Shown in pieces: positions 2,771 to 53,985 of a stretch of DNA of 64,000 nt (positions within the stretch are counted from its first letter, which is position 1; every line of letters starts with the position of its first letter). The notes under the pieces were generated by a model that was given only the letters and a program-made list of their open reading frames with translations, was not told the origin of the DNA and made no database searches. A program made the translations under genes and the position numbers. The stretch covers positions 37,634,001 through 37,698,000 of the forward strand of contig OZ024756.1 of NCBI GenBank assembly GCA_964016885.1, in the 5' to 3' direction. This DNA comes from Eledone cirrhosa (lineage: Eukaryota).

Positions 2771-3112
2771 TATATATATATATATACATATATATAGAGA
2801 TATACATACATATATATACAAATATATATAGATATATATATAAATATAAATATATACATACATATATAGATATATACATACATATATAGATATATACATA
2901 CATATATATATATATAAATATATATATATATAAATACATATATATATACTTATATATATATATATATATATACATATATATATGGAAAGTTATATTTAAA
3001 TTGTTGGGTTACAACTAGTAAATATTTATAACTGATATAAAAGCACTCGACAAATATTTGGAGTATATTTACAATATTAAATAAATGGAAACTATATTTA
3101 TAAAACCATATC

Positions 3113-3178
3113 TATTTCATTATATATATTTCAGGGATATCATATTAACAATATGCTATGCCTTCCTCAGACAAAATA
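3113..3178 (-). ncRNA. Type I hammerhead ribozyme motif (left arm)
   Basis: Reverse complement of the motif at 3352-3417. Confidence 0.8.
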
Positions 3179-3351
3179 CAATATAAACAGTTTTATAGAT
3201 AAATAGATTCGACATACCGTAACAACATCGACTTGTATTTGAAAAGGTTGATTTGAAAAGGTTGATTTGACTACCAAATCAACCTTTTCAAATACAAGTC
3301 GATGTTGTTACGGTATGTCGAATCTATTTATCTATAAAACTGTTTATATTG

Positions 3352-3417
3352 TATTTTGTCTGAGGAAGGCATAGCATATTGTTAATATGATATCCCTGAA
3401 ATATATATAATGAAATA
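3352..3417 (+). ncRNA. Type I hammerhead ribozyme motif (right arm)
   Basis: Stem I TATTTTGT / CTGAGGA / stem II AGGCATAGCATATT-GTT-AATATGATATCCCT / GAAA / palindromic stem III TATATA / TA cleavage site / stem I' ATGAAATA. Confidence 0.8.
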
Positions 3418-3477
3418 GATATGGTTTTATAAATATAGTTTCCATTTATTTAATATTGTACATATATATATATATAT

Positions 3478-3838
3478 TAGAAAGAGAGGTTTTTTTTACA
3501 AAATGAAAAATAACCGAGGTGTCCTCCACGAGTGAAAGTATAAAGAAAAAAAGATGAAATCGAAAATGCAACTGGAGTCTTATTTTTTAAAAAAATATAT
3601 ATATTTATTTGGTTCCTTTACTGGTTTCGCAGTTCATCTGCTTTTCAAAAGTAGAGTTGAGATGGGGGGTTTGTGGTTTTTCTCATGAGATGTGAGAAAA
3701 ACCACAGACCCTCCATCTCAACTCTACTTTTGAAAAGCAGAAGAACTGCCAAACCAGTAAAGGAACCAAATAAATATATATATTTTTAAAAAAATAAGAC
3801 TCCAGTTGCATTTTCGATTTCATCTTTTTTTCTTTATA
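3478..3838. mobile_element. Foldback element (family 2): ~60-bp tail plus ~145-bp inverted arms, in (TA)n
   Basis: 3539-3685 pairs with 3693-3838 with a few mismatches; same tail-plus-arms layout as the adjacent element but unrelated sequence. Confidence 0.85.
3613..3654 (-). ncRNA. Candidate hammerhead with U3-A8 variant core
   Basis: Minus strand: CTACTT TTGAAAA GCAG-ATGAA-CTGC GAAA CCAG TA AAGGAA. Stem I is weak, and the right-arm copy has GAAA changed to CAAA. Confidence 0.55.
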
Positions 3839-51044: not shown

Positions 51045-51492
51045 CTTTCTGATTTAAGCCCAAGGCCAACAATTTGTGGGGAGGGGAAAGTCAATTAAAT
51101 CGACCTCAGTATATTACTGGTACTTTATTTTACCGACCACATAAGGATGAAAGGCAAAGGTAACTTTGGCAGGATTTGAACTCAGAATGTAAAGGGCCGT
51201 AACTCTATGCCACAAAGCATGTTGTCCGATGCTCTACTGACTCTGACAATCCACTGCCCTCTATCAATAATAAAGGTTTCTGGTTTAGGCACAAGGCCAG
51301 CAATTTTGGCGGAGGGGAAAGCCAATTAAATCGATCCCAGTGTATTACTGGTAGTTTATTTTATCGACCACATAAGGATGAAATGCAAAGTTAACCTCGG
51401 CAGGATTTGAACACAGAATGTAAAGGGCCGTAACTCTATGCTGCAAAGCATGTTGTCCGGTGCTCTACCAATTCTGCCAATCCATCACCCTT
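51045..51492 (-). mobile_element. Two tandem SINE family A copies (long variant)
   Basis: 51045-51261 and 51277-51492 each match the reverse complement of 5848-6066. Confidence 0.87.
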
Positions 51493-51624
51493 ATGTATCT
51501 ATCAATAATGACTAATTATCAAAAACTAATTAATCACGAAAATGAAAAAAAGCTAACATCGATTAATGAGAAACATAATTATATAGCCGATACTAATTAT
51601 CTGGCGATTAATTGGTGCCACCCT

Positions 51625-52000
51625 ACATACAACCATTGCTACATGTGATTGTACAAGACCCATATTGCATCTATTACATACACACACACACATACACACA
51701 TACACACACACTCCACACTCATACACACACACACACACACACACGCATAGCCATACACACACACACTCATATATATATATATACATACAACCATTGCTAC
51801 ATGTGATTGTACAAGACCCATATTGCATCTATTACATACACACACACATACATACATAGCCACACACACATACACACACACTCTACACTCATACACACGC
51901 GCACACATGCATAGCCATACACACACACTCATATATATATATACATACAACCATTGCTACATGTGAGCTTACAAGATCCATGTTGCATCTATTACTGCAC
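51625..52000. repeat. ~160-bp tandem repeat (two full units plus a third unique core)
   Basis: CATACAACCATTGCTACATGTGATTGTACAAGACCCATATTGCATCTATTAC occurs three times, separated by CA-rich spacers. Confidence 0.85.
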
Positions 52001-53942
52001 ACACACACATACACACATACACACACAAGAAGCCACACACATGCACACATACACACATCCACACACACACACACACACACATACACATGCACATACACAC
52101 ACACACACATCCACACACACACACACACATACACATGCACATACACACACACAAAGCCACACACACACAGCCACACACAGCCACACACACACAGCCACAC
52201 ACACACACACTGCCACATACATACACACACAGCCACACACACATACACATGCACATACACACACACAAAGCCACACACACACAGCCACACAGCCACACAC
52301 ACACACACAGCCACCCAGCCACACACCCACACACACCCACACACACACATACACATGCACATACACACATACACAAAGCCACCCACACACAGCCACACAC
52401 ACACACAGCAACACACACACACAGCCACCCAGCCACACACACACAGCCATCATAGTACAAATACATTAATATAATCACATTTTTCATGTTATGTCCAAGA
52501 ATTTGTTCTGAAAGACAAGAAAATGCCAAATGTACTTTACTTTAGCAAATCTTAAATGTTTGGCCTTTTGAAGAGAAAAGTTGGAAGAAATTCTTCAGCT
52601 TTGGAGTGGCTTCAACCTTGATAGAAGATATAGTATTGGTGGTGGCAGTGGTGGTGGTTGTGGTTGTGGTGGTAGTATTGGTGATGGTGGTGGTGGCAGT
52701 GGTGGCGGTTGTGGTATTGTTGGTGGTGGTAGTTGTGGTTGTGGTATTGTTGGTGATGGTGGTTGTGGTGGTGGTAGTTGTGGTATTGTTGGTGGTGGTA
52801 GTTGTGGTTGTGGTTGTGGTATTGTTGGTGATGGTGGTTGTGGTGGTAGTTGTGGTGGTAGTTGTGGTATTGTTGGTGGTGGTAGTTGTGGTGGTGGTAG
52901 TTGTGGTGGTGGTGGTTGTAGTGGTAGTATTGGTGATGGTGGTGGTGGCAGTGGTGGCGGTTGTGGTATTGTTGGTGGTGGTAGTTGTGGTTGTGGTATT
53001 GTTGGTGATGGTGGTTGTGGTGGTGGTAGTTGTGGTATTGTTGGTGGTGGTAGTTGTGGTTGTGGTATTGTTGGTGATGGTGGTTGTGGTGGTGGTAGTT
53101 GTGGTATTGTTGGTGGTGGTAGTTGTGGTTGTGGTTGTGGTATTGTTGGTGATGGTGGTTGTGGTGGTGGTAGTTGTGGTATTGTTGGTGGTGGTAGTTG
53201 TGGTTGTGGTATTGTTGGTGATGGTGGTTGTGGTGGTAGTTGTGGTGGTAGTTGTGGTATTGTTGGTGGTTGTGGTTGTGGTGGTGGTGGTGGTTGTGGC
53301 TGTAGTTGTGGTTGTGGTGGTAGTATTGTTGCTGTTGTTGTTGGGTGTGGTGGCGAAGGTGGTGATGGCTGTGGTATTGTTGGCGATGGTGTTGTTACTG
53401 TTGTTGTTGGTGGTGGTGGTATTTATCTTGATGGTAGGGGTGATGGTAGTGGTGGTTATGATGATGATGATGGTGGCCACAATAAGGATTATTTATATTT
53501 ATTTTCATTTTTTGTTTGTCATGTTTTTGTTGTTGATTTTGACAATACCTACACTATATATACATATATATATGTATATAAATATATGTATACATATATA
53601 TATATGTATATATATATATATATATATATATATATATATATATATATATATATATATATATATGTATATATATAAACGGAAAAAAGGAAACAAAATTTCA
53701 TTTCCCACTCTTAGTACGGCTGTTACTTAAATATAAGTATGTACACGTACATACATATATGTATACAGACATACAGTAGTATGTATATATATATATATAT
53801 ACATGAACACATATATATATGTACGAATGGATTCACCGAACATTTATTATAATGCTCGGTGTGTTTGTAAACAAACATCCCGTATTAAGCCGTACAGTGT
53901 CTAGCAACCATCGTTGCTCGTTTGTTCAACACTGACAAAGGA

Positions 53943-53985
53943 ACGCTGTACTAGTTTCAAGCTTATTAGCTATCGTCAGCAACGT
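53943..53985 (-). ncRNA. Compact type I hammerhead motif in a ~250-bp island flanked by (TA)n
   Basis: ACGTTG CTGACGA T AGCT-AATA-AGCT T GAAA CTAG TA CAGCGT; 6-bp stem I, palindromic stem III ACTAGT, GUA site. Confidence 0.83.

Follow-up and report, generated by a model that had tools for sequence, protein, structure and literature searches.

Hammerhead motifs in (TA)n-rich DNA of Eledone cirrhosa are probably the 3' ends of Penelope-like elements

Results

A 64,000-nt stretch of Eledone cirrhosa DNA (assembly GCA_964016885.1, contig OZ024756.1, positions 37,634,001 to 37,698,000 of the forward strand; hereafter, the window) carries type I hammerhead ribozyme motifs at 11 loci. These loci are very probably the 3' ends (pseudo-long terminal repeats) of endonuclease-positive (EN+) Penelope-like elements (PLEs), together with short non-coding derivatives, from seven families. 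The link to PLEs is made through anatomy only, because no PLE reading frame was found among the frames searched. The window is repeat-rich animal DNA, with 64% of its length in tandem or low-complexity sequence and 200 runs of (TA)5 or longer. A first-pass annotation had described the unique islands within (TA)n as largely hammerhead-bearing elements of about seven unrelated families, and had proposed a distinct ribozyme retroelement system that could cut intronic pre-mRNA. The hammerhead families described here belong to a kind that is already known: every structural feature matches published PLE ends, and the proposal of a distinct system is not supported. Departures from the published pattern are modest and comprise longer tails, several stem II bases other than G-C and a high local density.

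Hammerhead cores and their families

Motifs were judged by the type I core, C3(U3) U4 G5 A6 N7 G8(A8) A9, G12 A13 A14 A15.1 and U16.1 H17, with stems I and II. A strict descriptor (core boxes, stem I of at least 3 bp, stem II, a self-pairing stem III and H17) retrieved 6 canonical C3-G8 cores with stems I and II, whereas 100 local dinucleotide shuffles averaged 0.06 and never exceeded 1. Four belong to family A, at 3170(-), 3360(+), 41913(-) and 42075(+), and one each to family B, at 47394(-), and family C, at 53979(-); because two of the loci are inverted duplications, the 6 cores represent 4 independent loci. A relaxed scan added 2 compensated U3-A8 cores, at 3648(-) and 11344(-), with a null mean of 0.12 per window over 200 shuffles of unmasked segments (probability of at least two, 0.01). 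Comparison with dinucleotide-shuffled sequence had been named beforehand as a check on the motifs, and their frequency is well above that of the shuffled sequence.

When damaged and half copies are included, the window holds 16 motif copies at 11 loci, distributed over families A (3 loci), B (2), E (2) and C, D, F and G (one each). Half of the copies (8 of 16, at 6 of the 11 loci) passed the scans; the other 8 are damaged or halves. Three damaged cores, all on the minus strand, escaped both the strict and the relaxed scan and were identified by eye: that of family D at 7831, with a long stem II, a U-U pair at the stem II base and G17; a family A core at 11828, in which the stem II base is shortened; and a family B core at 11092, where TA cuts into the first core box, so that the 5' strand of stem I is missing along with C3. 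Family E is present as 3' halves only (34331, 34435 and 41642), with U16.1 additionally lost from the 34331 arm. Two partial copies, at 8304(-) and in the right arm of the 3539-3838 pair, were absent from the first-pass annotation. Most of the sites that it did list are real hammerheads: those at 3113/3352, 41856/42067, 47363 and 53943 are complete, those at 3613 and 11302 have U3-A8 cores, those at 7753, 11092 and 11776 are damaged, and those at 34331-34435 and 41642 are halves, as stated there.

The remaining listed site, 8072, lies in a plain hairpin within the family D element (8070..8108; minus-strand z -4.0). Its A9 is G and its stem II is not closed beside GAAA, and the idea that it might be an opposite-strand ribozyme, making the element ambisense, was rejected for the same structure. 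A loose scan of the window for GAAA followed by a palindrome turned up unspecific matches in large number, none of them convincing as a new family, the copy at 8304 being the sole addition accepted. Among the 150 of 333 rows considered from an Rfam scan (E<=1), there were only microRNA models on hairpins and microsatellites, none reaching the gathering score, and no hammerhead family.

The seven families appear unrelated, in line with the original count, with 17 of 21 between-family alignments giving p>0.05 and the strongest, between B and E, reaching z 3.1. Within family A, the core is invariant across 3 independent loci, 98.8% of 80 stem cells pair (against 40-61% in slid-partner controls) and 3 of 16 pairs have both partners altered, although this covariation comes from only 3 independent loci and from a structure drawn on those same sequences. 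Core conservation with stem covariation, a further check proposed at the outset, is accordingly seen in family A only. In public reads, none of the 40 variants considered, out of 110, fell at core positions, and family A stem II varies widely with its hairpin retained.

Stem III is self-complementary, exactly or with G-U pairs, in A, B, C and D, and with G-U in G, mostly as previously described; however, the palindrome of family A is 8 nt long, that of family B at 15.1-16.1 is ACGT and that of family F is broken (ACCAGT). Family C has ACTAGT, and family E has a 5-bp stem III with a palindromic loop. The base of stem II is G10.1-C11.1 in B, F and G, A-U in A and U-U in C and D, and an extra nucleotide after A9 is present only in B and G.

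Anatomy of the elements

Four of the loci are head-to-head inverted pairs, whose arms are 90-99% complementary, with junctions of 1-19 nt and with the left arm 60-83 nt longer than the right in all four. The first pair of family A (A1, 2984..3461) has arms at 3064-3255 and 3275-3466 (99%), an 80-nt tail on the left arm (2984-3063) and predicted cuts after 3121 and after 3409. The second (A3, 41723..42174) has arms at 41806-41993 and 41995-42182 (97%) and an 83-nt tail, again on the left arm. These two pairs are only 74% identical, yet they have both end points in common, and the single, tail-less copy of the same family (A2, 11733..12167, minus strand), which contains an internal 31-nt tandem repeat, stops at the tail-less point. 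The upstream part of this copy, 12040-12110(-), is weakly similar to the tail of family A, read in the same direction (p 0.02-0.03), a hint that family A might be a short repeating unit; a remnant of about 20 nt resembling the same tail lies in a TA run at 34535-34560 (p 0.009).

In family E, a head-to-head pair of 3' halves (E1, 34252..34438; halves 34331-34435, 90%) has its inversion point within stem II and a 79-nt tail on the left arm that recurs in other genomic copies. The single tail-less 3' half E2 (41645..41708, minus strand), with GAAA, the 5-bp stem III and a GUC site at 41662, ends where the short arm of E1 ends. The family F pair (3478..3834; arms 3539-3685 and 3693-3838, about 94%) has its U3-A8 core in the left arm, whereas the core copy in the right arm has lost G12; its one-sided extension of 61 nt (3478-3538) is called a tail by analogy, unsupported by a second copy. 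Tails are thus confirmed across copies for A1, A3 and E1, and assigned by analogy for F and for B1, below.

The remaining loci are single minus-strand copies. B2 (47350..47479) has an intact minimal core with an extra A after A9 and a 4-bp stem II, and ends in (TA)n about 17 nt past the predicted cut. Its relative B1 (10987..11124), the copy deprived of C3, continues about 85 nt beyond the end point of B2, probably as a tail. The family G element (11283..11406) requires one bulged U in stem I, and its 3' end abuts (GA)n. The family C element (53821..54068) has an intact core with a 6-bp stem I; just upstream of this stem, 53995-54025(-) contains a donor-like GTAAGT with an AG about 29 nt later, a spacing too short for a normal intron. 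According to the available text of PMC4209133, PLE introns can terminate beside helix I. The family D element (7640..8338) is a partial tandem, in which a 529-nt unit is followed by a 176-nt direct repeat (99%). The complete core has G17 and the 3' half at 8304 has U17; the unit is strongly structured (z -7.3), has 31% GC and is without a Pfam match.

Association with (TA)n

At each of the 11 loci, a (TA)5+ run lies no more than 150 nt from a core, compared with 33% of unmasked bases so placed, and for the 6 loci that came from the blind scans alone the association has p ~0.001. The flanking by (TA)n noted earlier therefore stands, apart from the end of G that abuts (GA)n; direct flanking is not independent evidence, since the TA runs served in part to set where the elements end. 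By contrast, the islands are not largely hammerhead-bearing: 12 of 44 TA-bounded segments with at least 50 unmasked bases carry a motif (12 of 29 among those of at most 750 nt), and the elements cover 2770 of 23265 unmasked bases, or 12% of the non-simple sequence. The other segments are short interspersed elements (SINEs), pieces of long interspersed elements (LINEs), repeats resembling miniature inverted-repeat transposable elements (MITEs) and unclassified DNA, assigned partly by eye. The reported density of more than one motif per 6 kb holds with damaged loci included (1 locus per 5.8 kb) but not for intact cores (1 per 8 kb).

Copies in public reads

Four of 13 public DNA runs were aligned, at 80% likeness, to 41645-41993, a 349-nt stretch that holds both A and E sequence. 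Of the 12.5 million reads in one raw-read run, 45082 fell on this stretch, as did 47579 of the 12.8 million in the other (0.36-0.37%), indicating that families A and E are very abundant. The runs listed as containing the sequence included none of RNA, which speaks neither for nor against expression. Read depth corresponds to about one copy per 74 kb for A and one per 133 kb for E, figures that are good to an order of magnitude only, both runs being reduced-representation (restriction-site-associated DNA, RAD) libraries whose depth is biased by library type. Reads (5135 and 6052) and contigs (66 and 3, from two organisms) carry the tail-less end of family A on into (TA)n, and loose ends past the 3' end of E2 match the E1 tail. 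Upstream of E2, the last 7 of the 30 letters seen in contigs complement the 3' strand of stem II (64 contigs with an agreement of 0.58, plus 1 contig), and the E1 inversion point lies inside stem II thus extended. A pile of read ends at 41695, either a truncation hot spot or an effect of RAD read length, was not used.

Discussion

Identity of the elements

The window contains a partial tandem (D), head-to-head inverted, 5'-truncated copies (A1, A3, E1 and F), tails at one end and an AT-rich, microsatellite target, all of which are features of EN+ PLEs. In the accessible portions of the literature, EN+ PLE copies are inverted and 5'-truncated, with a tail at one end and a bias for microsatellites including (TA)n (Craig et al. 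2021, PMC8557442), and palindromes at inverted junctions are read as signs of self-priming (Arkhipova et al. 2013, PMC3846280). A PLE protein nicks AT-rich DNA, and two start sites of reverse transcription define the tail (Frangieh et al. 2024, PMC11167929). The likeness extends to EN+ PLEs of the Penelope/Poseidon, Neptune, Hydra and Naiad groups, as far as the sources available describe them, in 5' truncation, partial tandems, inverted copies with palindromic junctions, a single tail and AT-rich or (TA)n targets (PMC8557442, PMC3846280, PMC11167929). The elements studied here probably belong to a clade other than the Naiads, which are described as being without canonical hammerheads.

The ribozymes themselves resemble the minimal hammerheads of metazoan PLEs, described in the available text of Cervera and de la Pena (2014, PMC4209133) as forming numerous unrelated families within one genome, usually as single, truncated copies, with pairs on opposite strands separated by 100-700 bp, with U3-A8 cores and with helices III that are small and palindromic, and as cleaving weakly as dimers and not as monomers. 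Shared with that set are the type I fold, the tiny or palindromic helix III, truncated single copies, opposite-strand pairs and U3-A8 cores; on the other side, A (A-U), C and D (U-U) depart from G10.1-C11.1, the extra nucleotide is confined to B and G, helix III of E has 5 bp, and the local density, 8 intact cores over 64 kb, seems high beside the thousands per genome given there. Among natural hammerhead variants, U10.1-U11.1 at the base of stem II, as in C and D, and palindromic stems III suited to dimers have been described (Perreault et al. 2011, PMC3088659). In one coral, more than 6000 motifs in 16 families were counted (Cervera and de la Pena 2020, PMC7229834, from the accessible text). 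A repeat annotation of Octopus vulgaris includes 31 recently active PLE families, and ribozymes do not appear in the portion of its main text available to us (PMC13282606). A literature search, for which most subscription papers were out of reach, returned nothing on octopus hammerhead ribozymes or on strand bias of PLEs.

Several results weigh against assigning the loci to PLEs. Among the 150 of the 209 reading frames in the window that were searched (SINE-derived and overlapping frames excluded), none had a Pfam match, and neither a host exon nor a PLE coding remnant upstream of any core was found. The only long open reading frame in the window, 32246-34150(-), of about 635 amino acids, matches RVT_1 and, after it, a PHD finger, but has no match to GIY-YIG. 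Related loci were found in none of the two metagenome collections and one viral collection scanned, so that the autonomous Penelope reverse transcriptase partner anticipated in the first-pass annotation was encountered neither there nor in the frames. The tails of 60-83 nt exceed the 30-40 nt given in the published descriptions available. Of the 6 families having a 5' half, just 3 show the G10.1-C11.1 pair and just 2 the nucleotide inserted after A9, both of them typical of minimal PLE hammerheads. The first core box of family E was not seen, lying past the 30-letter upstream extension. Finally, folding as monomers favoured the hammerhead in 0 of 9 copies (z +1.0 to -1.5); because this is expected for dimer-type motifs, it is uninformative and not positive evidence.

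Taken as PLE ends, the loci would be products of the PLE pathway, derived from truncated autonomous elements or from short derivatives such as D, and those in the window would be mostly inert remains. By analogy with PLE biology, a protein with reverse transcriptase and GIY-YIG domains would bind RNA near the hammerhead, nick (TA)n DNA and prime reverse transcription, and priming at one of two sites would yield copies with or without a tail. The sequence has, in keeping with such a scheme, two fixed end points per family, in TA, and truncation 60-430 nt upstream. Folding back at a hairpin or palindrome could then generate the second, inverted, tail-less arm, and copying of more than one unit could generate the partial tandem D. 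With its unstable, self-complementary stem III, the hammerhead would be expected to cut only as a dimer or with protein, thereby processing the element's own multimeric RNA.

Alternative explanations

A refinement of the PLE-end reading, with which it can hold together, is that most families are dedicated short, non-autonomous, retrozyme-like units of a few hundred bases, excised by dimeric hammerheads, perhaps circularised, and dependent on borrowed PLE proteins, rather than truncated autonomous elements. We regard this as possible, though on balance somewhat doubtful. It is suggested by D, a whole 529-nt non-coding and strongly structured unit between two repeats, by the similarity of the upstream part of A2 to a like-oriented family A tail, and by the lack of coding remnants upstream of the cores in the frames searched; moreover, PLE ends are given as the origin of animal retrozymes in a preprint (Li et al. 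2026, 10.64898/2026.07.22.740005, as far as its text was available). However, the A2 likeness is weak and lies in AT-rich DNA, and the short copies of B, C, E, F and G do not allow a decision. D itself is short, low in GC, structured, non-coding and placed between hammerhead-bearing repeats, like the non-LTR retrozymes outlined in the accessible parts of PMC7229834 and the preprint, but it measures 529 nt against 150-450, comprises 1.3 units in place of a tandem array and has one complete core, with G17. Under a definition of retrozymes as tandem 150-450-bp units that carry two or more complete, canonical hammerheads, D falls outside.

It is very improbable that the hammerheads act on host transcripts by cutting intron-containing read-through pre-mRNA. 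The cores of B2, C and G, three minus-strand copies, are indeed intact, and the one-sided polarity described below could reflect selection linked to a transcript, but if the polarity does record selection, its simpler meaning is that sense copies were purged. No exon was identified in the frames searched. Furthermore, the arms of A1, A3 and F pair over 95-97% of their bases (-224 to -297 kcal/mol), so 5 of the 8 intact cores would be sequestered, given that a read-through transcript of these pairs makes the complement before the ribozyme; the other three, in B2, C and G, have stem III palindromes of 4-6 nt and no intact partner of the same family in the window. The activity of minimal PLE hammerheads in vitro is given as low in the available text of PMC4209133. 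In anole RNA-seq, no reads ended at the hammerhead site, and cleavage required the protein (PMC11167929), by which the PLE hammerhead was assisted while being dispensable for insertion in vitro (PMC11167929). We thus consider the cutting of intronic pre-mRNA suggested in the first-pass annotation unlikely. In principle, the complete core of D might cut the U17 site in its own partial repeat.

The least probable alternative, already largely refuted, attributes the inverted pairs to MITE-like DNA transposons or to foldback artefacts within TA repeats, with the cores matching by chance. The 90-99% complementarity of the TA-flanked arms would fit, 8072 is just such a chance match, and a MITE-like repeat does occur in the window: short TA-flanked elements with similar terminal inverted repeats lie at 10448-10577 and 57490-57563, as recognised by eye. 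Against this stand the 6 cores found where shuffled nulls give 0.03-0.06, the unequal arms with a tail on one side only, the occurrence of the same families as single copies, the compensatory stem changes and the recurrence of the same ends in thousands of reads.

Shared polarity

All 7 single copies and the tailed arm of all 4 pairs are on the minus strand, though the (TA)n target is symmetric (binomial p 0.016 for 7/7 and 0.001 for 11/11). The test was post hoc, neighbouring insertions are perhaps dependent (7 clusters give p 0.016) and the F tail is unconfirmed. One SINE family has 5 plus-strand and 6 minus-strand copies, whereas three smaller repeat families are also one-sided (3/3, 4/4 and 2/2), so that chance or local clustering may account for the polarity. 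A speculative reading, to which we give limited credence, is that, (TA)n being strand-symmetric, the polarity records a real asymmetry: integration would follow the direction of replication or transcription, or sense ribozyme copies would have been purged from a host intron, and D would also count as a minimal-hammerhead retrozyme of 529 nt, its complete core cutting the U17 site of the partial repeat. As it stands, the result is a repeat annotation of seven hammerhead-bearing PLE-type families, two of them very abundant. The in vivo role of PLE hammerheads is called unclear in the accessible text of PMC8557442, and if the polarity held genome-wide, a bias of orientation within introns would test that role directly. 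The long inverted arms may also be potential sources of double-stranded RNA.

Neighbouring features

The long frame at 32246-34150(-), which we take to be an RTE-type LINE, is 5'-truncated, and its 3' part recurs at 46590-47293. The SINEs of the window seem to be of octopus type. Long minisatellites with units of 44-72 nt occupy 1-1311, 8654-9572, 16086-21319, 37216-38866 and 58228-59240, and at least 4 of them grow from parts of dispersed repeats. Non-repeat islands at 4995-5010, 21935-21970 and 45885-45900 contain motifs that, in our estimation, resemble RFX, octamer and YY1 sites and are possibly regulatory. Lastly, 29476-30155 is a degenerate array of a 10-nt repeat (68 copies, 62% match), unlike the surrounding microsatellites.

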